A stretch of DNA of 50,540 bases, counting the filler, from Sphacelaria rigidula (taxonomy: Eukaryota): NCBI GenBank assembly GCA_964200075.2. It is 3 parts of 3 records of this genome, joined end to end, with 100 filler letters (N's around TTAATTAATTAA, not from the genome) between each part and the next. Parts side by side here need not be neighbours in the genome. Positions count along the whole stretch, not along the records: positions 1 to 16,786 come from CAXNAA020001255.1; 2 more parts are not named here. One strand, written 5' to 3'. This document shows, in pieces, positions 2,796-45,900 of the stretch. Each line of letters starts with the position of its first letter. Positions within the stretch are counted from its first letter, which is position 1. The notes under the pieces are model-generated. The model was given only the letters and a program-made list of their open reading frames with translations. It was not told where the DNA came from and ran no database searches. Both the position numbers and the translations under genes were made by a program.

Positions 2796-5700
2796 TTAAG
2801 GCTCGCACTGCTGACAACACTGCCCACTTGTGACAAATGTGGCCTGGATTTTGCGGCGGCTTGTTCAGTACACAGCTGACCGCGCGGAAGCACCCAACTT
2901 ACTGCAGCCGGGTGGGCCATATGACCGCCCCAGGGGGCTCTCGATACCGCCCCGCCCGCGTCGGCAGCCGGCGACTGATGTGTGCGTAGGGCTAAAACGA
3001 CTTCACGCTGTCTCAACGACTCAGAGGTGAAACGGGTTGGCTTTGCCCAACGCACGCTCTCAGTCAACCTTGGAACACAGGACCTGCACAACGACATCAA
3101 AACCACAAAAGGTTGTTCACACGTCAACACATATACCTACAAGGAAGTTGCCCTCCTTGTAGGTCTCTCACCTGGTCTTGCAACGAGCCCGCACGGTTGG
3201 GGAGCAGTGTGGCCATATCAGGGTGCTTCGGGCCAAGGACTGTCTCCTGCCTCGCCTCGCACCGCTCGTATAGACGCTCAGCCTCGGCCAACTTGCCCTG
3301 TAATATAGCAAAGGACGCAAAACCACCGCACGACAACCAACGTCGGACCTACAACGGGGGCGAGACGCTCGCGCCACCGCCATGCCCACGTCTGCAGCCG
3401 CCAACCGATGTGTGTGTAGGTCGAAAACCACCTCACCTAATCTCGACGACTCGGAGCTACAACCGGTTGGCTTCGCCCAACTCACCCTCTCAGTCGACAT
3501 TGGACCCCAGGATCTCGGCAACAACACCAACAACACCAACAACACGCAACGCCGTTCACGCGTCGGCACACATGACTACGGAAAGGTTTCCTCGACTCTT
3601 ACCTGCTGTTTCAACAACCCCGCACGATCGTTAAGCGTTGCGGCCAAATCAGGGTGCTCCGGGCCAAGAATCTTCTCCCGCATCGCCTGGCACCGCTCGT
3701 AAAGGCGCTCGGCCTCGGCCAACTTACCCTGCAATGAAGACATGACGCAAACACACCACACATGGTCAACGTCGAACCTGTAACGAGGCGAGACGCTCGC
3801 GCCATCGCCCCCCAAGCGTCTTCTGCAGTAACCAACCGATGTGTGTGCAGTACCGAAACTACTTTGCCCGATATCGACGACTCAGAGCTACAACGGGTTG
3901 GCTTCGCCCAAGTCACCCTCTCAAGTCAACCTTGGCCCTCAGAACCTGCGCGACGACACCGACACCACACGATGTCCTTCAAACGTCAACACACACCACT
4001 ACGACAAAGTTGCCCCACCTCTCACCTGAAGCTGCAACAAGCTCGCACGGTTGTGGAGCAGTGTGGCCAAACGAGGGTCTTCAGGGCCAAGAACCTCCTC
4101 CTGTATCGCCTGGCACCGCTCGTAAAGGCGCTCGGCCGCGGCCAACTTGCCCTGAAATGTATTATAGTACACAACGCAAAACCACCACATTTGGAGTCTC
4201 AGAAAATAAGATGAGAACTCTATGTCTTTGAAGGAATAGCAGCAAGGTATTGAAAAGGCGAGCCCACATCTGTGACCACGGTTTCGAGAGAACGAACAAG
4301 TAAACGGAAATAATTATACTAAGAACAGTCAACGTCGGACCTGCAACGGGCGCGAGACGCTCGCGCCACCACCCCGCTCACTCCTGTAGCAGGCGAAAGG
4401 TGTGGGTGCAGGGCCGAAACCACTTCACCCAATATCGACGACTCATACCTACCACGGGGTTGGCTTCACTCAACTCACCCTCTCAAGTCAACCTTGGCCC
4501 ACAGCACCCGCGCAACGACATCAACACCACTACGAGAAAGCTGCCTCGGCTCTCAACTGACTTTGCAGCAATCCCGCACGGTTGTTGAGCAGTGTGGCCA
4601 AACGAGGGTCCTACGGGCCAAGAACATTCTCCGATATTGCTTGGCACCGCTCGTAGAGGCGCTCGGCCTCGGTCAACTTGCCCTGAAATGTAGTACATGA
4701 CGCAAAACCACCACACAACAGCCGGTGTCGAACCTACAACGGCGGAGAGACGCTCGCGCCACCACCCCACCCACGTCTGCAGCCGATGATCAGACTGTGT
4801 GCAGGGCCGAAATTAGTTTACGCGATCTCGACGACTCAGAGCGACAACGGGCTGGCGTGCCCGAATCACCCTCAGTCAACCTTGGCCCACACGACCAACG
4901 CAACATCCACAGCACACAATGTTCTTTACACGTCAACACACACGACTACGAGAGAGTTGCCTAGGCTCTCACCTGATGCCGCAACACGTTCGCACGGTTG
5001 TGGAGCAGCGTGGTCAAACGAGGGTCCTCCGGGCCAAGAACCTTCTCCGTAATCGCCTGGCACGACTCGTAGAGGGGCTCGGCCTCGGAAAACTTACCCT
5101 GAAATGTAGTGGACGACGCGAAGCCACAACGCAACAGTCAGCGTCGGACCTACAATGGGGTTGACAGGGTTTGTGCCACCGCCCCGCCCGTCTGCCCCCG
5201 GCGACCGATATGTGTGCAGGGCCAAAACTACTTACTTGCCCGATCTCTTCGACTTAGAGATACAACGGCTTCGCTTCGCTCAACTCACCCTCTCCCCCAA
5301 CGTTGGCCAACACAACCAGCGCAATAAAATCAACACACACGACTACGAGGAAGTTGCCCGGCCCTCACCTGATGTTGCAACAAGAGCGCACGATTGTGGA
5401 GCGTTGCGGCCAAATCAAAGTGCTCCGGGCCGAGAACAATCTCCCTGATCGCCTGGCACCGCTCGTAAAGGCGCTCGGCCTGGGCCAATTTGCCCTGTAA
5501 TGCAGTTACGACGCAAAATCAGCACGCAACAGCCAACGTCGGATCTTCCATGGGGGAAAGACGCTCGTGAAACCCCCCGGCCCACGTCTGCAGCCGGCGA
5601 CCACTCTGTGTGCAGGGCCAAAACTACTTCACCCGATCTCAGAGCTACAACGGGTTGGCTTCACCGACGTCACCCTCTCGGTGAAAGTTAGCCCACGCGA

Positions 5701-8700
5701 CCAGCGCAACATCAACACACGGTGTCCTTCACACGTCAACGCAAACCACTACGACAAAGTTGCCCCACCTCTCACCTGAAGCTGCAGCAAGCCCGCACGG
5801 TTGTGGAGCAGTCCGGCCAAATCAGGGTGCTGCGGGCCAAGAATCTTCTCCAGCATCGTCTCGCACCGCTCGTAGAGGGGCTCGGCCTCGGCCAACTTGC
5901 CCTGTAATGTAGTTCTCGACGCAAAACCACCAGTCAACATCGGACCTACAACGGGGGCGAGACGCTTGCGGTACCGCCCCGCCCACGCCTGCCTTCGGCG
6001 ACCGATGTGTGTGCGGCGATGAAGGTACTTCACCCGATTTCCACGACCCAGAGCTACAACGGGTTGGCTTCGACCAACTCACCCTATCAGTTAACCTTGG
6101 TCCACACGTCAACGCACGACTACGAGAAAGATGTCCCGCCTCTTACCTGACGTTTCAACAACCCCGCGCGGTTGTTCAGCGTTGCGGCCAAATCAAAGTG
6201 CTCCGGGCCAAGGACCTTCTCCCTAATGGCCTGGCACTGCTCGTAGAGGCGCTCAGCCTCGGCAAACTTGTTCTGCAATGTAGTGAACGACGCAAAGCCA
6301 CCACATAATAGTCAACGTCAAGTTTACAATGGCGGCGAGACGCTCGCGCCACCGCCCCGCCTACGTCTGCCGCTGGCGACCGATGTGTGTTTAGGGCCAA
6401 CCCCACGGCACCTGGCCTCGACGACCCAGAGCTACGAAGGGTTGGCTTCGCGAAAATCACCTTCTGTCAACAATCGCCCGCAGGACCTGCGCAACATCCA
6501 CACCACACAATATCGATCACACGTCAACACACACGGCCACGAGAGAGTCACCCCGCCCTTCACCTGATGTTGCAACAAGCCCGCACGGTTGTGCAGCGTT
6601 GTGGCTAAACGAGGATGCTCCGGGCCAAGAACCTTCTCTTGCATCGCCTGGCACTTCTCGTAGAGGCGCTCCGCCTCGGCAAACTTGCCCTGCAAAGTAG
6701 TGCGCGACGCAGAACCACCACACGAGAGACAATGTCGGACCTACTATGGCGGTCAGACGCTCGCGCCACCACCCCGCCCACGTCTGCAGCCGGGGATCGA
6801 TGTGTGTGCAGAACCCAGACCACTTTACCCGATCTCGACGGCTCAGAGCTACAAGGGGTTGACCTCGCCGACCCGAACTCACTCTCTCAGTCACCCTTGC
6901 AATACAGGACGGCGAACAATATCGACACCCCCACAGTGTCGGTCACACGCCAACACACACGACTACGAGAAAGTTGCCCCGGTTCTTACTTGATCTTTCA
7001 ACAACCGTGCACGGTTGTGGAGTAGTACGGCCAAATCAGGATGCTCCGGGCCATGAACCTTTTCTGTTATCGCCTGGCACCCCTCGTAGAGGCGCTCGGC
7101 TTCGGCAAACTTGCCCTGCAAGGTAGCGCACGACGCAGAACCACCACACAACAGTCAACGTCGGACCTACAACGGCGGCGAGATGGTCGTGTAACTCAAG
7201 CACACAGCCATCGACCGATGTGTGTGTAGGGCCAAAACCACTTCAATACCGACGACTCAGAGCTTCAACGGGTTGGCTTCGCCCAACTCACCCTCTCAGT
7301 CAATCTTGAACCATAGGACCTACGCAACAACATCAACACTACACAGTGTCGTTCACACATCAACACATCACTACGAGAAAGTTCCCTCCGCTTTCACCTG
7401 AAGTTGCAACAAGCCCGCACGGTTGTTGACAAGCACGGCCAAGTCAGGGTGCTCCGGGCGGAGGACCGTCTCCATGATTGACTGGCACCGCTCGTAGAGG
7501 CCCTCGGCCTCGGCAAACCTACCCTGCAATGAAGACACGACGCCAAACCGCCAGACAACGTCAGACCTACAACGGGGCCGACACGCTTGTGTCATCACCC
7601 CGCTCACACCTGCACCCGCTGATTGATGCGTGCGCAGAGCCAAACTACTTCACCCAATCTCGAGGACCCCGAGCTAAAACGGGCTGGTTTTGACAAACTA
7701 AACTCACCCTCTCAAGTCAACCTTGGACCCCAGGACCTGCGCAACGACACCAACACCACATGATGCCGTTCACACGTCAACACACATGACCACAGGAGAG
7801 TTACCCCGCCTTTCACCTGATGCTGCAACAACCCCCCACGGTTGTTGAGTGTTGTGGCCAAATCAGGGTGTTCCAGGCCAAGAACCTTCTCTTGCATCGC
7901 CTGGCACTGCTCGTAGAGGACCTCCGCCTCGGTAAACTTGCCCTGCAAGGTAGTGCACAACGCAAAACCACCACACAACAGTCAACATCGGACCTACAAC
8001 GGCGGCGAGACGCTAGTGCCACCGCCTCGCCCACGTCTGCAGCCGGCGACCAAGAGGTACGACGGGTTGGCTTCGCACGAACTCACCCTCTCAGTCAACC
8101 TTGAAACATGGGACAGCGCAACAACCTCAACACCACACAACGTTCACACGTCAACACTCACGACTACAAGGAAGATGCCTCGGCTCTCACCTGGTCTTTC
8201 AACAACCCCGCACGATTGAGCAGCAATGTGGCCAAAACAGGATCCTCCGGGTCAAGAAGCTTCTCCTTCATTGCCTGGCACCGCTCGTAGAGACGCTCGG
8301 CCTCGGCAAACTTACCCTGTAATGTAGTACACAATCCAAAACCACCACACGACATTCAACGTCGGACCTACAACGGCGGCGACGCGCTTGTGTCAGCGAC
8401 CCGCCCACGTCTGCAGCCGGCGACCGATGTGTGTGCAGGGTCAAGCTTACTATGCCCGATCTCGACGACTTAGAGGTAGACCATGTCGGCTTCGCACGAA
8501 CGCACGCGTTGGCTGACACGACCAGCGAAATAACGACCACAAGAACTTTGCCTCGGGGCCCACCTGGAGTTGCAACAAGACCGCACGATTGTGGAGCGCT
8601 GTGGCCACATCAAGGTGCTCCGAGTCGAAAACAATCTCCCTGATCGCCTGGCACCGCTCGTAGAGGCACTCGGCCTCGGAAAACTTGCCCTGAATATAGT

Positions 8701-11700
8701 CAGCAGCGGGAGACAGTCGTTCCTAGTGAAAATCCGATTTGAAATAGAACTGAAGACAACCCGGATATCACCGCGCCTGTTTGTTGACCCGCACGGCAAT
8801 ACAAGGACGCTACGGGCCAAGGGACTCGTCATTAATACAATCGGATCACCTAAATTCCCCCAAAATGTTTCTTCATCTAGGACCCTAACATTTGGGTTAT
8901 CGAAATCCAAATTTGTAGGGCGTGTAGCAGTTATCAATAGCCATCAGTAGGTGAAGGAATGGAACCATATTTGGAAGATTTGGTGTGGATACAACGATTT
9001 TCATCCTCCGGGTTTTCATCCTCAATGGAAAGCTCCATCCTCAATTTCGATGATCGGCTGCGATGACACGCACACCTCCCTGCTGCATTACATCGCCCGC
9101 ACGATCTGCTCATCTTTCATTTTCGCGTTAAAATTGTAAAAATGCAACACAGACGGCCCACCCTGGGGGTGACCGTATAGATCGAGACGAAGCCAATCTA
9201 AAACGCACAGTACAGCAGTACAATGCTGTTTAGTACAGTGCGGTGTTGTCTTTTATTTCCCGTTGTTGCGTTCGTTACGTTTGTCTATGAGTATCACCAA
9301 GAATCAGACTACACCAAACCGTTCGACAGCATCACCTTTTCCTACCTCCAGTTGCGAAAATTAATCTTTGGACTGCCACTTCGGTAGGCCATCTCGGTGT
9401 TCCAATTTTTTTTTTAATAATACGCGCATGAAACACGAATGACCCATCCTGAGTGTGGCCGTCGTCTGTATATGGACAAAGCCTAACTATACCGTACAGC
9501 ACAGTGCAATGCAGTACAGTACAGCGCAGTACACAGTGCTATCTCCTCTGTACCCCCCGCTGCATTCTTCCCCTCGTCTATGGGTACCACCACATATCAG
9601 AGTGGCGCCTCTTCCTCACACCAGCTGTAAAAAAGCGACGCTTAATCACTAGGGTGGGCCATCGGCGTCTTGTGTTCATTCTTCGAGTCAAAATCTCTGG
9701 AGACGGTCACCTTTTCCTACAACCTGCTGCAAAGTTGAAACCTCCGGCCCCCAATTGAGTTATCTGGGTTTCGCATTCATTTTTCGAGGGAAACGTATGC
9801 CGATACAACATATGGCTGACCCTGGGGAGAGTGGCCCTTGCCCGTGTATTCCCGAGGTATACGTTCAAGTCGCAGTGGAACGAGGCTGTCGAGACGGCAC
9901 GGCGGCGCTGGTATAGTTAACACAACAGACAAAGAAAATAGCACAATTCAGTCACCATGATGTTGTCTGTTCAAGTACACGCCATATTCTTTGCCTTGGG
10001 TTCCCTGTGCGGCTGTGTTCACAAACTGCGGCGCTTTTCTCAACAGAATATATCGGAGTGCACTACATTTGGACGTGCGCACGCACCGAAACGAAGTTAC
10101 TCCGATTCAGAACTCTCCTCCGCGGTTTCCCCCCGAGCCCCCTCAGTCTTTGAGTATTTTTCACTTGCACCGATTGGGAACGGCGCGTTGCGCGGGGCAC
10201 TCTATCGATAGATTTTGCCCACGCGGTCCTCTACCGTTACGTGTGCGATTCGAGCACTTGTTGTTGCGTTGGGTGTTTTAAACCCCAATGCATCATACTG
10301 CAGTGGCCATTTCAGGGAACGTCTCGCGGTCAGACCAATAAGCCGGAAAATACATTTTTTTTCAGTTTTAGAGTGTACGCGTTAAAAGCACCTAGACAAG
10401 GCCACCGCTATAGGAAGCGTGTGGATGTTGAGCAAGAGTATGCATGGTGTGAACAGGGAGGGCGTCGCCTGCACGAGCGACTCACCCGTCGAGAGATTGG
10501 GGTCCAAAAATGTATCTGAGTGGAGCATCCCAGGACGGTGAAGAAACAATGGGTATCTCGTCTATGGTCTTCACGGTGTCCTCGAACAGCCTCTTCACAT
10601 TTTCTGCCCCGATTAACACAGGTAGCTGTAGTTGTAAGAATGCAGTCCTCTCTGTTACTGTTCCTACTTTTTTCCCCTTAGAGCGTATTTGAGTTTCGTT
10701 TTTGTTGGGTACGTCTATCATGAGACTACGTTTGGACCCCGGGGGGGTCAGTTAAAGTGCGACAATCAATCATCAATCAAAGTCCGTGGCGACAAAAGTT
10801 TCGTGTTGTAGGTTGTGGCGGAAAGAAGTCGGCAAACTTCGTAGTCTCAAGCGTACCGTCTGTACACATGTGTTGCATGGGTTGACACCGGCGAATAAAA
10901 TATACCGTAACACACCCAGTCATCGATATATATCAACCGTGGGATTGCGCTACGAAAGGAAAGGACGGGCAGCAAGATGCGGCCGTGGTAACTGTTCGTT
11001 GCAACGCACCGAGCGGACATCAACATGTCTCCCAGAACCCACACCGTACGCACCTGAGCGTCACCCACGTCCCAAAGCGCTGGGTAGAACCAGTGCTTCA
11101 TGCCAGCAGCGTCGTGCCCATGGTGATATCGTTGCTAACGATGAAGTTCTGGGTTTGAGTACAACAAGTTACACCGTCACGTTTTTTGCCCCTAAGAAAC
11201 GTGCTCCTTCGGTACAGAATCGTTGGGACGGCAACAGACCACAGACACTTTTTGTTCCGGAGAATGTTCAGGCACAATGATTGAGAATATGTGCTACATC
11301 CGTTCTTTGAAGAGCATCGGGAGAAAATGCACATCATTGTCTGATCGGGCTCATGGGCAGGAAAAATCTTGTCCACAATTTTTCGTCATACCCCATGTTG
11401 TCAAACGGAATATGTGAAGTTACATCGGGTGCGAATATTATTTTTCTCAAACACGCTCCCTTGAGTAAGGGCACTTCTCATAGACTATTTCTTACGGTTG
11501 TCTGTGGGGGGAGAGGCATCACGTTTAAACAGGGAATATCGCCAGTACATGTCTTGGATACGTTGCATTATCTCACTAAGAGGAGTCTAACCCAAACTTC
11601 TGATTCGCTTGGCTCCAAGGTTTCGAGGATGGCTTCCGAAACAAAAGACGGCGGGACATGAAGAAATATAGGATATTCGCAGTAATGGGCATTTATTTCT

Positions 11701-14700
11701 TGGCGTCCTCACACCGGGCTCATATTTCCTGTGTCTGTGTCCAACCGAGTTTTCTCCTGGGGGCAATCCTCCATACCTCGAACCAAGCAAATCAGAAAAG
11801 TGGGCTAGACTCCTCTCAGTGAGACGATGCGAAGCGTCCGAGACGTGCGGTGGCGATCTGCTTCAAGAGGGGGTCAAAGGTCGTGTCAAACGTCCCAAAA
11901 CAGGAGAATACGCCCCCAGAATAACCAACCGTATATGAAATGTCAAGACATGTGATGAGCGATCACGTTCGAAAAATGGGATTGGAACATTACAATGAGG
12001 TTCAATTCCAAAATAGTGATTTCCCTGACCTCAAGTAATGACAATTGACTTTCATATTAGACATTATACCTCCCGGCCACCCTGAAACTCTTTTGGGATG
12101 TTTTCCGCCTTCCGTTTCCGCAATGGGCAGTTTCCACCAAAACTCAATAGAATGCAGCAGCTGTCTCGTTTTCTGACACAAGTTTACTCCAGGCCGGAAT
12201 GGTCGTGACAAACACACGGAGAACAAGAACCCACCTGTAGACGAAACAGTCCACCGATAAGTGCATATGCGTCGGCCACGTCTGTCGTCTCAGCTCGACC
12301 CAACTCCAGCAAGCTGGCTCTATACCTCTCCACCCCCAGCTGCTCATTGCCGGACAGCTCCTCCAGTGATCGCCACAAACGAATCAACGCGTATACATCC
12401 GTGCTCAGCCCCTCGTTCTCCTTAAACTTCCGGACCACAGAAAGCCTGCTCAAGTATCGCGTTTGACGCCCCACAGCACCCTCGACCAACTCATGCCTCT
12501 CCTTACCTTTACACTCAAGTTTGATAAAGTCCAACAGCAGGTCGTGCACGTAAAAGGAGCCTTCCGCCTCATGCAACAGTGTATTCTGCGCAAGGAAATC
12601 AGCTTCATTCTGCGCACCTTTGTCATCCTGCGACGCGATATGGTCATGACAAACAAGTCGGTGTTGGGCGTGGGTGATCCTATGAGTTTCACGCAACTAG
12701 TGTTCCGACGGCTCCAGCTGACAGCAAGGTCTCCTCGTAATAATGTCACGAAATCCTGAACTCCTACTTGACACTCGTCCACCATGAGTAGTCTACATGG
12801 ACGAGGACTCGCATTGTATCGACGTTCAACCTATGCCTCCCAAACGCCGTATGGCAGGTGAAAGATTGTATACTGATATCAACTTGTTCCGGCATCACAC
12901 CAGAAACAAACGCTTTTTGAATCACGATCAGCCTAAATTCTCCTCCAATAGCTGGTAGCTTGATCCCGGCAAACGTTTTGAGCGAACGTGCTGACCACAC
13001 GAAGGGCACACCAAACTTCTCACCATACCAGGCAAACATGAAACGAAAGTGTATGCTCACAGTGCACATATATCGAGCTATGGAAACTATCCGGCATACG
13101 GACAAGACCACTCCGTACATGGTAATGAGTCTGGCTCCATAAGATTCCGCTCATCTCACAAGCATCACCGGGCAGCACGTATGTACAAAGGTCAGAAGTC
13201 TGCGACCGATGCAACGGCGCTATCGAATCAACCGAACCTTCTCCCAGAGCGTGGCCAGCATAGCAGTTGATGCCCAAACACCACGGGCCAGCACAACCAG
13301 ACTCAGGAACATGTCTTGCTGCTCTTGACCCAACTCTTCCAGGCTTACGGACAGCACGGGATACAGTGACCTCTTGGACTTGTCGTCGGCGATGTCTCTG
13401 CTCATCTGGAGACCTAGCCGGGTTGCTTTCTTCGCTTTTATCTCTAGGTGCAGCTGGTGCCACGATACAGCAGAGTCTGGGCTTCCGGTAACACACGGGA
13501 GTGACCCTGCAATAGCAAGGGCCAACGCCAGCCGCCCGCATTCCTCAGCAACCTACGACGGATAGATCATGACGGAGAACACCGACAGAACAACACAGGT
13601 CGCGGATGCAGTCCGGCGAGTCTAGAGGAACTTCCAACTATATCAAAACATGGACTACCAAGACAACACCGCTTACAGTCTCATTTTGACAGCGACAAAT
13701 TTCAATCTGTAAATCGGTACATTATTGCGTCATACAAGACATCAGCAATCACATCAGACATTGATATGGGTGGGACCATGTTCTCGGTTGACAGACGAGG
13801 ATGGCTTGCACATCTCAAACGCTCTACCGTGAACCAGTGGCCGTCATACTTGTACCTGGTCAGCCTCCCTCTCCGGAAGTGCCACTGCGCCGCTCTTCGA
13901 CTTCAGCAGCTGCCGCGCCTCCACATGGTCCATGCTTCCCACCTCCGTGCACCCCCCCTGCATGGCAACTACTGAGCGGACACGCGTGGTCACCAGCAGC
14001 TGAAGTCCCGTGAGCATCAGCAGATTCACAATATCGCGCTGCCATACATCGTCCACCACAACCAGGCGAGGCAGGCCATCTTCTGACATGGTTGCAGTCA
14101 AGCTCCGGATCACCTCGTCCTCGCTGTCGAAGTAGAGCGGCCCCGTGGGAGATACTTTAACCTTGGCGGCTAGCCCCTCAAGGAGAGCTAGAAGTTGAGT
14201 CTCACCAGCTCGTCCTACGCTAAGCCAGTAGACTCCTCCCTGAAAGTGCTTCAGCACATCTGGGTTGCGAACGACTGCAGATGCTAGCATTGTCTTGCCT
14301 GCTCCCCCCATACCAAATAGCGCGTACGGAGCACTGCTAGCATCTGCTGCCGTGAGTTTTGAAACGATCTCCGACACGAGAGCAGTGCGCTCTACGAAAC
14401 TTGGAGGTCGCGAGCGCGCTTCAGGCGGAACCCTCGCCATACGTCTAGGCGCGGAGGAGTGGGTCAGCTTGGTGCGTATAGCGCTGGCGTCCGCAGCTAT
14501 AGAAAGCGCGGCGGCGCTCGTCGCCATGGTCAAGATTGTCTCGAGTGCCGCCCTGTGCGTTTTGATCCTTGTTCTGTCTCTGGCGTGCAGAGGCAGCCTT
14601 CGCCGAGGAAAAGAACGGCCCCGCTTGGCGTCGAACTGGATGGCGGTTTGATGGATGTTGGTGATCTCTTTTGTCACCTGCTGCACAGCGGTCTGGATGT

Positions 14701-15448
14701 GCGCGGGGAGCTCCGGCGCACGGGCATTGTCCAGTACGATACTCGTTATCAAGACGCAGTAGCTTAGGAGGTCAAGTAGTTCCTCCCGTGCAGCAGTGGC
14801 TCCTTTCACGGCCTCGAACAGAGCACTGAGAACAGCACAGGCGGGCTTCACAGCGTCGATATTGACCGCATTCACCATGAGGGCGAGCCCCTCAATTACC
14901 ACCCCGGTGGCAGTCTCTCCGGCTGCTGCCTCCGCCGTTTCCGCCCGAAGGAGGACAGCTTGATACCACGGTCTATTCTCTTCGATGACCTTCTGCGTCT
15001 TTTCTAGTGCCTAATCGACGAGGTAACAACACGCGTTATGTAGTAGGCTGCAGGTGTGAACCATCTTTCTCTGTTTCGACGCCAAACCTAGGTGGCTCAA
15101 CGCTGCACTCATGCACAGAGCCCCAGCCTCGAGCCAACGCCAACCAAGGCACAGCCTGTATGCACGGGATGTCCATGTCATATCCTAGCGTCATTCCCCG
15201 TCAAGATCTTCAGTTAATTTCAGAATATTCCAGAGTTTCTCACAGATAACTCCACATTTCTCCACTGGCATCGCCAAAAAGCATATGCTCGGTCTACTAA
15301 TGATACCCGTGTTCTCACCTGTTCTCTTATTTTGTCACATACCGCCCACCAGTACATTTCTACGTCGCATACACCACATATTGCTGAGCACATCGAATTC
15401 GTCGAATCTCACCTGGACCGGAGTGCCCACGATGACCGGGGATACCAT
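2796..15448 (-). CDS. NB-ARC-TPR (NLR-like) protein, spliced gene: N-terminal helical domain + NB-ARC + 13 intact TPR exons
   Basis: Exons in transcript order: 15413-15448, 13856-15010, 13238-13552, 12235-12627, TPR exons from 8564-8689 down to 3172-3297, tentative stop exon 2796-2843. All junctions are GT-AG and phase 0. NB-ARC motifs occur in order: P-loop GMGGAGKT, Walker B LVVVDDVW, LLVTTR, GLPL-like CGRLALALAIAG, MHD-like FYVHDLL. First and last exons are less certain. Confidence 0.9.
3172..3297 (-). CDS. TPR exon 14 (GKLAEAERLYERCEARQETVLGPKHPDMATLLPNRAGSLQDQ)
   Basis: 126 nt, AG/GT flanked, phase 0-0. Confidence 0.85.
3603..3728 (-). CDS. TPR exon 13 (GKLAEAERLYERCQAMREKILGPEHPDLAATLNDRAGLLKQQ)
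   Basis: 126 nt, AG/GT flanked, phase 0-0. Confidence 0.88.
4026..4151 (-). CDS. TPR exon 12 (GKLAAAERLYERCQAIQEEVLGPEDPRLATLLHNRASLLQLQ)
   Basis: 126 nt, AG/GT flanked, phase 0-0. Confidence 0.85.
4557..4682 (-). pseudogene. Dead TPR cassette 11 (pseudo-exon)
   Basis: GKLTEAERLYERCQAISENVLGP*DPRLATLLNNRAGLLQSQ: in-frame TAG at 4611-4613, and the donor reads CAG|TTGAGA instead of CAG|GTGAGA. Confidence 0.85.
4973..5098 (-). CDS. TPR exon 10 (GKFSEAEPLYESCQAITEKVLGPEDPRLTTLLHNRANVLRHQ)
   Basis: 126 nt, AG/GT flanked, phase 0-0. Confidence 0.88.
5369..5494 (-). CDS. TPR exon 9 (GKLAQAERLYERCQAIREIVLGPEHFDLAATLHNRALLLQHQ)
   Basis: 126 nt, AG/GT flanked, phase 0-0. Confidence 0.88.
5776..5901 (-). 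CDS. TPR exon 8 (GKLAEAEPLYERCETMLEKILGPQHPDLAGLLHNRAGLLQLQ)
   Basis: 126 nt, AG/GT flanked, phase 0-0. Confidence 0.88.
6147..6272 (-). CDS. TPR exon 7 (NKFAEAERLYEQCQAIREKVLGPEHFDLAATLNNRAGLLKRQ)
   Basis: 126 nt, AG/GT flanked, phase 0-0; first codon is AAC instead of GGY. Confidence 0.85.
6564..6689 (-). CDS. TPR exon 6 (GKFAEAERLYEKCQAMQEKVLGPEHPRLATTLHNRAGLLQHQ)
   Basis: 126 nt, AG/GT flanked, phase 0-0. Confidence 0.88.
6990..7115 (-). CDS. TPR exon 5 (GKFAEAERLYEGCQAITEKVHGPEHPDLAVLLHNRARLLKDQ)
   Basis: 126 nt, CAA|GTAAGA donor, phase 0-0. Confidence 0.88.
7398..7523 (-). CDS. TPR exon 4 (GRFAEAEGLYERCQSIMETVLRPEHPDLAVLVNNRAGLLQLQ)
   Basis: 126 nt, AG/GT flanked, phase 0-0. Confidence 0.88.
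7817..7942 (-). CDS. TPR exon 3 (GKFTEAEVLYEQCQAMQEKVLGLEHPDLATTLNNRGGLLQHQ)
   Basis: 126 nt, AG/GT flanked, phase 0-0. Confidence 0.88.
8191..8316 (-). CDS. TPR exon 2 (GKFAEAERLYERCQAMKEKLLDPEDPVLATLLLNRAGLLKDQ)
   Basis: 126 nt, AG/GT flanked, phase 0-0. Confidence 0.88.
8564..8689 (-). CDS. TPR exon 1 (GKFSEAECLYERCQAIREIVFDSEHLDVATALHNRAVLLQLQ)
   Basis: 126 nt, AG/GT flanked, phase 0-0. Confidence 0.88.
11493..11933. mobile_element. Foldback/MITE-like long inverted repeat in NB-ARC intron 4
   Basis: tctcactaagaggagtctaacccaaacttctgattcgcttgg pairs with ccaagcaaatcagaaaagtgggctagactcctctcagtgaga; outer ends tacggttg / caaccgta. Confidence 0.7.
12235..12627 (-). CDS. NB-ARC-TPR exon 4: winged-helix/MHD region and first TPR half-repeat
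   Basis: CAG|GAT acceptor, CAG|GTGGGT donor, 393 nt; FYVHDLLLDF motif; ends DVADAYALIGGLFRLQ, resembling the C-terminal half of the array unit. Confidence 0.88.
13238..13552 (-). CDS. NB-ARC-TPR exon 3: ARC subdomain (VAEECGRLALALAIAGSL...LATLWEK)
   Basis: TAG|GTT acceptor, AAG|GTTCGG donor, 315 nt, GLPL-like motif. Confidence 0.88.
13856..15010 (-). CDS. NB-ARC-TPR exon 2: N-terminal helical bundle + P-loop/Walker B (385 codons)
   Basis: Open frame between acceptor GATTAG|GCA and donor CAG|GTACAA; contains GMGGAGKT, VVVDDVW, LLVTTR. Confidence 0.92.
15413..15448 (-). CDS. Probable first coding exon of the NB-ARC-TPR gene (MVSPVIVGTPVQ)
   Basis: ATG plus 12 codons ending CAG|GTGAGA; phase 0 matches the acceptor at 15010. 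Confidence 0.55.
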
Positions 15449-16050: not shown

Positions 16051-16786
16051 AGAGCCGGAACGGGGCACACCGGGTGTCGAGGGACTAGGCTCGCAATCAA
16101 TCACCAAGCGCGAAGAGCCGTGATGTGCTTGGGAGTCGCTTGAAGGGTGAGCTGCATCATACCGAGATTCTTCGGTCCGAAGCGTACTGTATATCTTGCA
16201 TTTGGACGACAGCCTCCGATGGGGAGTTATGCTATGATACGGGGCGGTGTATTTTGAGTATTTTCTCCCAATAAATTCCATCTCAAATCTTCGTTGAAAG
16301 CAGCAACGTTTGTTCAAATGCGATTACTACCAGTAAGACACATTCATACCACTAGACACCGTTCCTACCCAAATAAAAACGCGCTTTGTTGATCCAGGAA
16401 GAATTCGCTGACGATCGCGAAAGGCGCACGCCCCTTCGTTAAAAACGTTGAAATCACAGGACTATTAGCCGGTGACACGGTTGCGAAATGATGCTTAAGG
16501 TCGAAGGGTTAAGGACAAGAAGGCGTGGGGTCAACCGCTTCTCGTCTCGTGTTGCTTCTGCTTGTTGCAATGTCAGATGATGCAGTTATCGTTCAAAAAT
16601 TGTAGGTTGTTCCTATTAATTCCTCTTTCACCTCTCATTGAGAGGGTACGCGAAGAGTGGTATCCCCCGCACGCCCAACCCCCTCCCCCCTCCCCCCCCC
16701 CCCCCCCGCCCCCCACGGCGCTTCGCGCTTGGTGATTGATTGCGAGCATGGTCCGGCGAAAGCCCGGCGTGCTCCGTCCCGGTTTT
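16051..16786. repeat. Two inverted copies (16051-16122 and 16714-16786) of a ~70-nt dispersed repeat; third copy at ~1467-1540
   Basis: gctcgcaatcaatcaccaagcgcgaag is the exact reverse complement of cttcgcgcttggtgattgattgcgagc. Confidence 0.7.
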
Positions 16787-32467: not shown

Positions 32468-32725
32468 TTTTTTTTTTTTTTCTCTAGTACTCCAACTTCC
32501 TTCTGCGGTGCTTGCGATATTTTTAATCGCGAGAGGAGTTCAGCGATCCCTTTCCCTCGTCGACCGTGAAGTCGAATTTTGTGTACCCACGACATAAGCG
32601 CTCTCCACTGTTATACATGGTGTGAGAAGAAAATCTCAGATCGTGTGACTTCACCGAGATTCGAACCCACAACCCAACCGTCAGAAGTTCTTGAGGTTAC
32701 CGACTGAACCACCCGGATGGCCGGC
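32468..32725 (-). mobile_element. Second tRNA-derived SINE-like element with poly(A) tail
   Basis: Minus strand: GTGGTTCAGTCGGTA (A-box-like), GGTTCGAATC (B-box), and a 14-nt poly(A) at the 3' end. A related head lies on the plus strand at ~33597-33669. Confidence 0.65.
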
Positions 32726-42900: not shown

Positions 42901-45900
42901 GTCGTTTGTTGGTTGCACTTTTCATCTTTGGCTTCTGCAAGCTGGTCGTTGATGCTGGTGGCCTTCGTCTGCATGCTTTCGCAGTCCGGTCACCGATCTA
43001 TTGCTAATGGATGTGCACCCGTTGCAGGTCTCCATCGCATGCGGAGGGTTCCACACTGCGGCGGTAACGGCAGAAGGGGAGTGCTACACGTGGGGCAAGG
43101 ATGATTTCGGGATGTTGGGCGTCGAATCGGGAGCCCTGTTGCAGGTATCCTTCACGTGTGCGAGCTACAACGGTTGTCGGTATCTTCCGCGCCACACTTC
43201 GGTCCGCTCTCTCAAGAGGAATGTTTTTGAAGGCATGGATGAGTGAATGCTCTGTATCATTCTCTGCGGATATGTCTAGAAAACGTTCACGCCCGAGGCA
43301 AGTATTGAGTAGCACCACCGTTTACTCGGCATCATTGTGCCAGTTACATGCAAGTATGCGTCGACAGCTCTTTAGCTGCCTAAATTGCGCTCGAACGGAC
43401 CTTGCTCCAGCTCTGCTATATGCGCAGCAGGGCGTGCAGTATCGCAAAATACAACCCGTGAGTGTTCTCTCTGATCTTCGGGATTTGTTTTTATGCGCAA
43501 AAGAGTGCCTCCCCCTCCCGAGAATAGCTAACTTTGGTGCTGAAATTGTCACTAATCTTTGTCCCGGGCTTCTCCTTATTGCTCTGGAAAAAAATCTCAT
43601 CACCAAAACCATATTTCTTGCCCCACCCTTGCTTTTCGCCGCGCTCTCGAGCACCCCCCTCCCCTTCGTCGGGACGAGTCTCCCCCTGTACTTGCAGTGC
43701 ACGTTGCTGCGGAGCATCGAATGATGACCACTCCATCTGCATCCCATCGGTTTTCAACCGATTCTTATCCCTTGTTGCTTTTAATATGCAGGGCGGGCTG
43801 TTCTGTCCACACCCTGTGACATTGCGTCACCCGGGAGAAAGCCAATCGACAGCTGAGGTATGACGATATGATTTTGCAAGGTTATGTTCTGTAGGGTACG
43901 CTTTGCTGTATACCCGGGGTATTTCCCCGGATGTTTACCGCACCCGACAGTTCTGTGATTTCTGTAAGACTTGTTTACCGGTACCCGACAGTTCTGTAAT
44001 CTCTGTAAGACTCCCGTACCGTTACCGGAGGGAACGGGTACGCTCTTGACAAGATACCTGATTGCGGGTACGGTTTTCTGTACAACCTCCATACCCTACC
44101 CGACAGTTTCTGTAAGTTATGTAAGCCTCCCATACCCTTACCCGACAGTTCTGCGAGTTCTGTACATAATGTTTACCCGTACCCGGAGCGCGAGTATGCT
44201 CTTGAAGAAATACTCGATTGCCGGTACCGGTGTTCTGTAAGCTTCCCATACCGGACCCGACAAGTTCTGGAATTTCTGTAGAACTTTTATCCAGTACCGG
44301 TACGCGACAGGTCTATGGGCTCTGTGAGCCTCCCATACCCCTACCCGGGGTTAGGGTATACCGTGATAGATATACCCGATTGCAGGTATGAGCACAGGTA
44401 TATATACCTTGGGGAAGTACGGACATAGGTTCAATCCAAACACATCCTCATGGCCTGTACATGTACCTCCCATCGATCAACCCACCTAACTCCTTCGTTC
44501 AAAACTGCACACCAACAGTAATTCAATGTTGAAAAGTTCTTTAGTTTGGGATCTGGCGGGATACGAGGTACCGCTGAGAGGGAACACGAAATATGAGCAG
44601 CCCTGCAGACCGTCAGGATGGATCACCCCCAGACTCGAGTGGTAGCTCGAGCGGGGGTGGTTCGTTTGCGCCACCAGAGGATCAAGTAGCAAGACGCTCG
44701 TCATCGACGTTGATGATGATTGTGTCGTGGTCATCAAACCCCAGGCCGTTATCGACGTGTCCAGCACACAGTATGAGCTGCCACCGAAAGTCGTCAAGGC
44801 CGTAGGCGCTTTTGTCGCGTGCCGAAGGGCTTCCAGAGAGCGGGCAGCCGTGAATGCTTCTTTATGTACTCTCTGGAAGTATACGTGAAGCCGATATATA
44901 TTGACGATCCCGTGCACATGTACTACTGCGACTGTTCGTGTGGTCTTTCTCTACCAACCCCGTGAAGCTGTTTGGAGTTTTCTTGAGCTGTCATCTGTAT
45001 TTCGCCACTGTTGTAGTGACGTAGGGCCCACCACAGGGGTGATGAGAATACCAAGGTCGTGTTTTTTAGGGTACGGTTCTCTGTTTACCCGGCGTCTTTT
45101 CCCGGGTATTTACCGCACCCCACAGTTCTGTAAACTCTGTAAAATTTCCATACCGGTACCCGACAGTTCTGTAATCTCTGTAAGACGTTCATACCCGTAC
45201 CCGATATTTCTGTGAGTTCTGTAAGCATCCCGCGCCGTTACCCGGGGGCACGGGTATGCTCTTGATAAGATACCCGGTTAACAGTACGGTTTTATGTGCA
45301 GTCTCCATACCTTACCCGACAGTTTCTGTGAGTTCTGTACAAAAATTTTACCCTAACCCGAGGGGTGGGTATGACCTAAAAGAGTTACCCGATTGCCGGT
45401 ACCGGTTTTCTGTAAGCCTCCCATACCGTACCCGACAGTTCTGTAAACTCTGTGAGACTTTCATGCCGGTACCTGATAGTTCTGTAAGTTATGTGAGGAA
45501 TCTCATACCCTACAGAACGTGCCCGTACCTTACAGAACACAACCTTGTAATTTTGTACAGACGCAGAGGGTGGCATATCTTTCGGTTCCGCCACTATACC
45601 CATTTTTTTTCTCTTCAAGTCCAAAGTTGGCAGTGGGGGCAGGGACGGTGCTCCAAATCCAAGTATTAGGTTGCCAGACGTCGTCAGTACTCTGGAAGTT
45701 AAATTGGTTTGCGCCTGGAACGTATGTCCTTGGAGTCGGAGCGAGGTTTTACACTTTTTGCGAGACTCAGCTACGAGTTGACTGCGAGTCAGAAAGGTCG
45801 AATTGATGTGGTGATTAATAAAACACGAGGAAAGACTTCCTGCGATAGCCCCCCCCCAAAAATGCATGGTTCTGGAGTCAAAATCTTGACGTAAATCGAA

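Follow-up and report, generated by a model that had tools for sequence, protein, structure and literature searches.

The repeated intron modules of a Sphacelaria rigidula NB-ARC-TPR gene: very probably a passive legacy of tandem exon-intron duplication

Background

When the introns of a repeat-exon array carry the same short motifs in unit after unit, are these motifs signals that help to diversify the gene, or are they simply what remains of a duplicated intron? The question is raised here by an NB-ARC-TPR gene on the minus strand of a 50,540-base stretch of Sphacelaria rigidula DNA (assembly GCA_964200075.2; this whole stretch is hereafter called the window), the TPR-coding C-terminal part of which is a tandem array (window 2934-8689). 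An initial annotation of the array had pointed out that nearly every intron keeps, in the same order, two short inverted repeats (hairpins) and two copies of a 9-letter word, and had offered three readings: recombination or gene-conversion signals, RNA structures that steer exon choice, or a mere reflection of recent duplication. We find that the motifs are very probably the passive, neutrally evolving legacy of the tandem duplication of an exon-intron cassette in a known kind of receptor gene, and that a signal function of any sort, all such functions taken together, is unlikely.

Somatic recombination and combinatorial splicing of repeat exons have each been put forward as ways in which brown-alga NB-ARC-TPR and ROCO genes diversify (PMC3341825, PMC11378527; statements on these two sources refer throughout to the portions of their text available to us). 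In Ectocarpus, Zambounis et al. 2012 (PMC3341825) described 13 of 24 NB-ARC loci with TPR domains built of 42-aa exons, together with inactivated TPR exons lying in introns on the coding strand, and speculated on somatic recombination; on alternative splicing of NB-ARC-TPR genes, PMC11378527 refers to Teng et al. 2023.

Results and discussion

Architecture of the TPR-coding part

The array (2934..8689, minus strand) consists of 14 units, each made up of a 126-nt TPR exon and an intron module, and was delimited by means of Tandem Repeats Finder, exon borders, an intron profile, Pfam and spliced joints. Tandem Repeats Finder reports a periodicity of 416-431 nt with 72-74% matches (2977-8051). 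Exons 1 to 7 lie on the minus strand at 8689-8564, 8316-8191, 7942-7817, 7523-7398, 7115-6990, 6689-6564 and 6272-6147, and exons 8 to 14, on the same strand, at 5901-5776, 5494-5369, 5098-4973, 4682-4557, 4151-4026, 3728-3603 and 3297-3172. All 14 are exactly 126 nt (42 codons) long, with AG before 14/14 and GT after 13/14; the array introns are GT-AG introns in phase 0, and all exons are symmetric. Single exons match Pfam TPR_12 and TPR_10, and the exon consensus reads GKFAEAERLYERCQAIxEKVLGPEHPDLATLLHNRAGLLQxQ. Exon 11 (4557..4682, minus strand) is dead: it contains an in-frame TAG, its donor GT has become TT, and it is skipped in RNA-like contigs.

A profile built on the introns recovers 14/14 copies (E 7e-84 to 4e-54), and has no match outside the array over the whole 50,540-base window; homology extends through the introns from end to end, with the same motif order. 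The modules are real, and the 13 complete introns measure 245-305 nt, intron 11 being exceptional at 405 nt owing to an insertion of about 132 nt. This A+T-rich insertion (4190..4321, minus strand), recognized in the alignment and by a profile match split into 4555-4322 and 4189-4158, showed no obvious terminal repeats or target duplication. The 14th module, at the 3' edge of the array and the start of a long last intron (2934..3171, minus strand), is truncated and covers only profile positions 10-230 of 296.

As side observations on this region, the non-transcribed strand of the array (plus strand, 2979-8643) contains many open frames of 90-210 codons, and it has a GC skew of about -0.2 and an AT skew of about +0.15 to +0.2, a composition that fits these frames.

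Sequence conservation of the introns and their motifs

With up to 1 mismatch allowed, the window contains 27 occurrences of the 9-letter word CTACAACGG, where 11.2 would be expected, and 0/100 shuffles reach this number; 19 of the 27 lie inside the array, all on the plus strand. The word is found in exact form 10 times, in 9/14 introns. Paired copies are indeed present in most units, CCGTTGTAG being a form of this twice-occurring motif, but their spacing is 96-110 nt, mostly 108 nt, and not about 120 nt as first described. The duplication of the 9-mer within one unit (13/15 letters) is itself borderline, 33/500 shuffles scoring as high. The two hairpins, described as kept in nearly every intron, exist as words, but few copies are intact: GCGAGACGCTCGC is exact in 4/14 introns (8/14 with up to 2 mismatches) and GGGTTGGCTTCGCCCAACTC in 1/14 (6/14 with up to 2 mismatches). 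As the gene lies on the minus strand, the motifs that are transcribed are the reverse complements of these words, and on the transcribed strand the stem of the second hairpin contains an A-C mismatch. The idea that the intron is a decayed TPR exon was also tried and rejected, the alignment of the consensus sequences being no better than that of 87/500 shuffles in sense and 143/500 in antisense orientation.

Conservation was measured, like RNA structure below, on copies of one array. Introns have a mean pairwise identity of 0.741, as compared with 0.760 at third positions of exons and 0.808 at exon positions 1+2, and the p-distance of introns (0.254; bootstrap interval 0.233-0.275) compares with 0.293 (0.194-0.384) at four-fold sites; the introns diverge at the neutral rate. 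Between exons, the NG86 method gave a synonymous divergence (dS) of 0.42 and a non-synonymous divergence (dN) of 0.20 (ratio 0.48). The special conservation that signal motifs would lead one to expect did not hold up: mean identity in the 55 motif columns stands at 0.759, compared with 0.738 in the remaining intron columns (one-sided p 0.096) and 0.760 in third positions of exons, so that the motifs fare no better than the intron around them or silent exon sites. Taking the four motifs one by one, between 39 and 143 of the roughly 247 windows that match a motif in length are conserved as well or better. Among 12-mers, conservation is highest in CTGAGAGGGTGA and GTGTTGACGTGT, and not in the words singled out before. 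Nor do conserved positions cluster, since the best window of 9, 12, 20 or 30 columns was equalled by 293, 419, 180 and 740 of 2000 column shuffles, respectively, and neighbouring intron columns are uncorrelated (lag-1 autocorrelation of conservation -0.03).

Folding and splicing of the introns

RNAalifold, applied to the 13 introns, returned a consensus of -5.22 kcal/mol, in which the covariation term is +0.14; 1/16 predicted pairs shows a double change, and the annotated hairpins are not part of this consensus. Counted directly, the 11 pairs of these hairpins are paired in 72.5% of cases against 72.5 +/- 1.4 after shuffling (281/500 shuffles as high), with a covariation score of 0.083 against 0.081 in shuffles. 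Such equality with shuffles means that the stems decay through uncompensated changes, and the covariation expected of functional hairpins is absent by both approaches. Folding of single introns, done for 3/13, gave z-scores of -0.23, -0.89 and -1.60. A search of Rfam at a permissive threshold produced one sub-threshold match (E 0.13, on the non-transcribed strand) and none at gathering score.

Splicing was followed in contigs of three RNA-like runs of one study (X6, X7 and X8). No run listed for this sequence is on record as RNA, and joints were judged against the DNA run X4, which is devoid of them. As many as 12 exact GT..AG joints across the array are found in 3/3 RNA-like runs and are absent from X4; 11 of them remove single introns, and the remaining one, 4150->4972 (821 nt), skips dead exon 11 together with both flanking introns. 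The 13 intact exons are joined in genomic order in contigs of the three runs, and skipping of an intact exon was seen in 0 of the 15 joints listed (of 22), contigs being prone to drop rare isoforms. Unspliced contigs of low depth are also present (e.g. 5875-6175). The array introns are ordinary GT-AG introns, constitutively removed.

These results bear directly on the reading of the motifs as RNA elements that steer splicing, either by pairing of the docking/selector type known from Dscam or as intronic enhancers. PMC11378527 cites alternative splicing of the repeat exons of brown-alga NB-ARC-TPR and ROCO genes, and exon skipping would be frame-neutral here, all exons being symmetric and in phase 0. 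As in Dscam, similar exons that leave the frame unchanged are clustered in tandem, here in what is a candidate immune receptor. The cluster differs in that conserved complementary sites were not found and that the exons are joined serially and are not mutually exclusive, as judged from contigs, in which rare isoforms are invisible. Moreover, there is neither covariation nor excess pairing nor excess conservation of any window, folding energies are unremarkable, and every intact exon is joined to its neighbour in contigs of the 3 runs, none being skipped among the 15 joints listed. The suggestion that the motifs are structures steering exon choice is thus contradicted by the lack of covariation, the lack of excess conservation and the joining of consecutive exons, and we consider splicing elements very unlikely.

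Evolution of the repeat units

A maximum-likelihood tree of 13 exon-plus-intron units is close to a star: 7/10 inner branches are collapsed, only 1, uniting units 1 and 9, is well supported, and the terminal branches have a median length of 0.14. Units that lie farther apart in the array are no less alike (Spearman -0.12, p 0.30), and the similarity matrices of exon, 5' half-intron and 3' half-intron are uncorrelated (Mantel tests all non-significant). The spectrum of variant columns (44, 62, 55, 39, 13, 10, 5, 1) is close to that of an equal-rate star (31, 68, 67, 40, 16, 5, 1, 0.2). In a GENECONV-like test the longest concordant run of variable sites was matched in 32/300 permutations, and no conversion tracts were detected. 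Among the deletions of at least 5 nt (n = 10), 4 are located in the GT-rich 5' stretch of the intron, and 2 start immediately behind the 5' 9-mer copy; 0/10 removed a motif, ten events being too few for much inference. The array is unhomogenised and looks static since its amplification, with no concerted evolution. The reading in which the motifs merely reflect recent duplication is supported as to duplication, which is not very recent, about 0.14 changes per site having accumulated on each unit.

The same data speak to the proposal that the motifs are signals for site-specific recombination or gene conversion, in the manner of V(D)J recombination signal sequences or of VLR cassette assembly. 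In its favour are the fixed order of the motifs, the spacing of about 108 nt between the 9-mer copies in most units and the somatic recombination speculated on for the brown-alga NB-ARC-TPR family (PMC3341825). Against it, the signal words show no more conservation than the neighbouring sequence or silent sites, the hairpin words being exact in just 4 and 1 of 14 copies; there are no conversion tracts, and of the deletions (at least 5 nt) only 2/10 start beside a motif. Furthermore, according to the available text of PMC11378527, somatically recombinant loci and a site-specific recombinase are unreported in brown algae. This part of the initial annotation finds no backing in motif conservation, conversion tracts or deletion breakpoints, and recombination signals appear highly improbable. 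Hardly credible at all is an intron that would be a mobile element of the "introner" type or the host of a small RNA gene (snoRNA or miRNA): the same intron sequence does occur many times, but its copies strictly alternate with TPR exons in one array and are found nowhere else in the 50.5-kb window, and a small RNA gene is opposed by the absence of any Rfam family at gathering score and of a stable fold in the 3/13 introns folded.

A different role would be that of the homologous introns as substrates, and not as carriers of specific signals, for unequal homologous recombination, by which the number and order of TPRs would come to differ among individuals, whether through germ-line or somatic events. 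In X4, another sample of the same organism (2195/2777 of its contigs are 95-99% alike), a contig of depth 11.9 connects position 7355 (intron 4) with position 3991 (intron 12) across 8 other letters, the junction to be expected if unequal crossing-over had duplicated units 5-12. The reading frame would be kept at any copy number, the 126-nt exons being symmetric and in phase 0, and exon shuffling has been proposed for the brown-alga NB-ARC-TPR genes (PMC3341825). However, the star tree and the lack of both conversion tracts and a distance effect indicate that the array was neither homogenised nor reshuffled for about 0.14 changes per site; the 7355/3991 joint comes from a single de Bruijn contig of short reads, for which a paralogue or an assembly error is possible, and the break falls within the GT-rich 5' stretch of the intron, away from the motifs. 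Recombination on homologous introns is, on balance, a tentative possibility. The stronger proposition that introns of roughly 290 nt are the working substrate of TPR copy-number change, through recombination of non-adjacent introns between individuals, and are kept long and alike for an evolvable TPR number, strikes us as doubtful.

Proposed origin of the intron modules

We favour the reading in which a unit of about 417 bp, comprising a 42-codon TPR exon and a phase-0 intron, would have undergone tandem amplification to 14 or more copies, either in a single burst or in rapidly successive rounds, presumably by unequal crossing-over or replication slippage. Each copy would then have drifted independently, by about 0.14 substitutions per site; exon 11 has lost its donor and gained a stop and is skipped, the other exons being spliced serially. 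The introns would look like conserved modules because they are copies of one ancestral intron.

Several points weigh against this account. (i) The intron alignment was optimised for identity, so that intron divergence is understated. (ii) The dS of exons (0.42) exceeds the Jukes-Cantor distance of introns (0.31). (iii) Invariant intron columns number 44/229, against 31 under the equal-rate star model, and (iv) parsimony-informative columns number 88, against 76.6 +/- 6.3 expected. (v) The RNA nature of runs X6, X7 and X8 was deduced from their spliced joints, the label being a guess, and (vi) low-level exon skipping is possible, as joints were listed incompletely and contigs drop rare forms. 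The excess of dS and the surplus of invariant and informative columns leave room for mild constraint, rate variation, shared history or alignment bias; these deviations from a neutral star model do not point to localised elements.

Relation to other repeat-exon genes

The layout of the gene is itself already known from the NB-ARC-TPR genes of Ectocarpus (PMC3341825). As in the latter, an NB-ARC domain is followed by TPRs, each encoded by one exon of 126 nt (42 aa), and the repeat is of the GKYxEAEPLY...LGPEHP...NRAxLLxxQ type; the published pattern GKYxEA[E/D]PL[Y/F]...Gx[D/E]xxx[V/I]AxxLxNxAxLLxxQ (PMC3341825) fits our array consensus except for R in place of P at one position. Inactivated TPR exons on the coding strand have their counterparts here in exon 11 and in a relic at 8771-8836. 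The present gene differs in coming from another brown-alga order, going by the name of the identical protein P0001 (see below), and in that its array looks static since amplification and not "highly dynamic".

Brown-alga ROCO genes (PMC3341825; PMC11378527) similarly have one repeat per exon, in-phase introns and a repeat number set by exon duplication, and alternative splicing has been proposed as a source of their diversity (PMC3341825; PMC11378527). They differ in encoding one LRR per 72-nt exon with phase 2 introns, against TPRs and phase 0 here, and in their reported relics on the non-coding strand: searching the window with an exon profile revealed none, the sole relic outside the array lying on the coding strand.

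Bacterial proteins with TPR_12/TPR_10 repeats, of the kinesin-light-chain type, share this 42-residue repeat family: in 80 metagenome loci, the repeats are 48-71% identical to single exons. Where inspected, these bacterial-type loci differ in having contiguous 126-nt repeats without introns, one of them (L001) being a single open frame of 332 aa. The intron module was found in 0/80 metagenome loci at E below 0.01, and a 21-letter intron word had 0 exact matches in the metagenome collection; being intron-less, the metagenome TPR loci are uninformative on introns.

Organization of the remainder of the gene and window

Upstream of the array, the first coding exon (MVSPVIVGTPVQ; 15413..15448, minus strand) translates into the N-terminus of the public protein P0001, a 1226-aa sequence whose source name is "unnamed protein product, partial [Sphacelaria rigidula]", and is connected by joint 15009->15412 in 3/3 RNA-like runs. 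The large exon that follows (13844..15010, minus strand) corresponds to an open frame at 13844-15010, its exact 3' end not being fixed; this frame matches Pfam PF00931 (NB-ARC) with E 6.4e-14 and, used as query, is 100% identical to P0001. The NB-ARC part has its best named relatives among brown-alga NB-ARC-TPR proteins, with pairwise identities of 42-55%; these include proteins of Ectocarpus fasciculatus (50%) and Scytosiphon promiscuus (42%), both of which show a 42-residue TPR periodicity. The last exon before the array (12235..12650, minus strand; 5' end approximate) encodes a linker ending in ...GGLFRLQ, as supported by joint 8688->12234 and by P0001. This joint (3545 nt skipped, GT..AG; 3/3 RNA-like runs) defines a 3.5-kb intron (8690..12234, minus strand), and through it spliced contigs link the upstream exons and the first TPR exon into one gene.

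The 3.5-kb intron contains high-copy repeats and a decayed TPR exon. This relic (8771-8836, coding minus strand) is truncated and has lost its donor; it matches the exon profile with E 6.6e-5 over profile positions 46-111 and, lying upstream of the first array exon, suggests that the array once reached further 5'. The depth of run X4 is high at 8576-9443 and 10312-11613, peaking at 32,689 (8576-9009) and 15,930 (10746-11179) compared with about 10-60 elsewhere, and contigs have loose ends at about 9060 and at 10733-10780 in all runs. These high-depth stretches are probably insertions of high-copy transposable elements. Another X4 contig joins 8456 (intron 1) to 10747 (a repeat edge in the 3.5-kb intron) with 28 other letters in between; it may represent a structural variant or a paralogous locus, the reference arrangement being also covered by X4.

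At the other end of the array, contigs run on past exon 14 (loose end at 3171) into letters that are absent from the window, a 17-letter word from this end having no match in the window with up to 2 mismatches allowed. It follows that the last exon or exons lie beyond the left end of the window and that the public model is partial. P0001 also looks mis-spliced in places: it runs 19 residues (VKGGVTLSWPCVLTCDRYC) into intron 6 (6273-6563, minus strand), for which contigs give a plain 6272->6564 joint, and it includes part of dead exon 11 and loses the ends of two exons, contigs offering no support for read-through.

Elsewhere in the window, six long frames gave no Pfam match, and the same holds for two frames within the 3.5-kb intron. 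A related 41-nt tandem repeat forms two arrays separated by about 1.1 kb (43932-44026 and 45113-45224); a C-rich run (period-1 C repeat, 82% matches) occupies 16679-16714 and an (AT)14 microsatellite 2552-2579.

Conclusions

Here the whole intron is part of the repeated unit and evolves neutrally. In the accessible literature on brown-alga arrays we found no analysis of within-array intron similarity, although one may be in print. A corrected model of the gene was obtained on the way, the public one reading through an intron and a portion of a dead exon. Dedicated intron signals would have made the ideas of somatic recombination or combinatorial splicing directly testable, and for the present NB-ARC-TPR gene the answer is negative. 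The search for a diversification mechanism in this family is thereby narrowed, away from intron motifs and towards variation in copy number between individuals.

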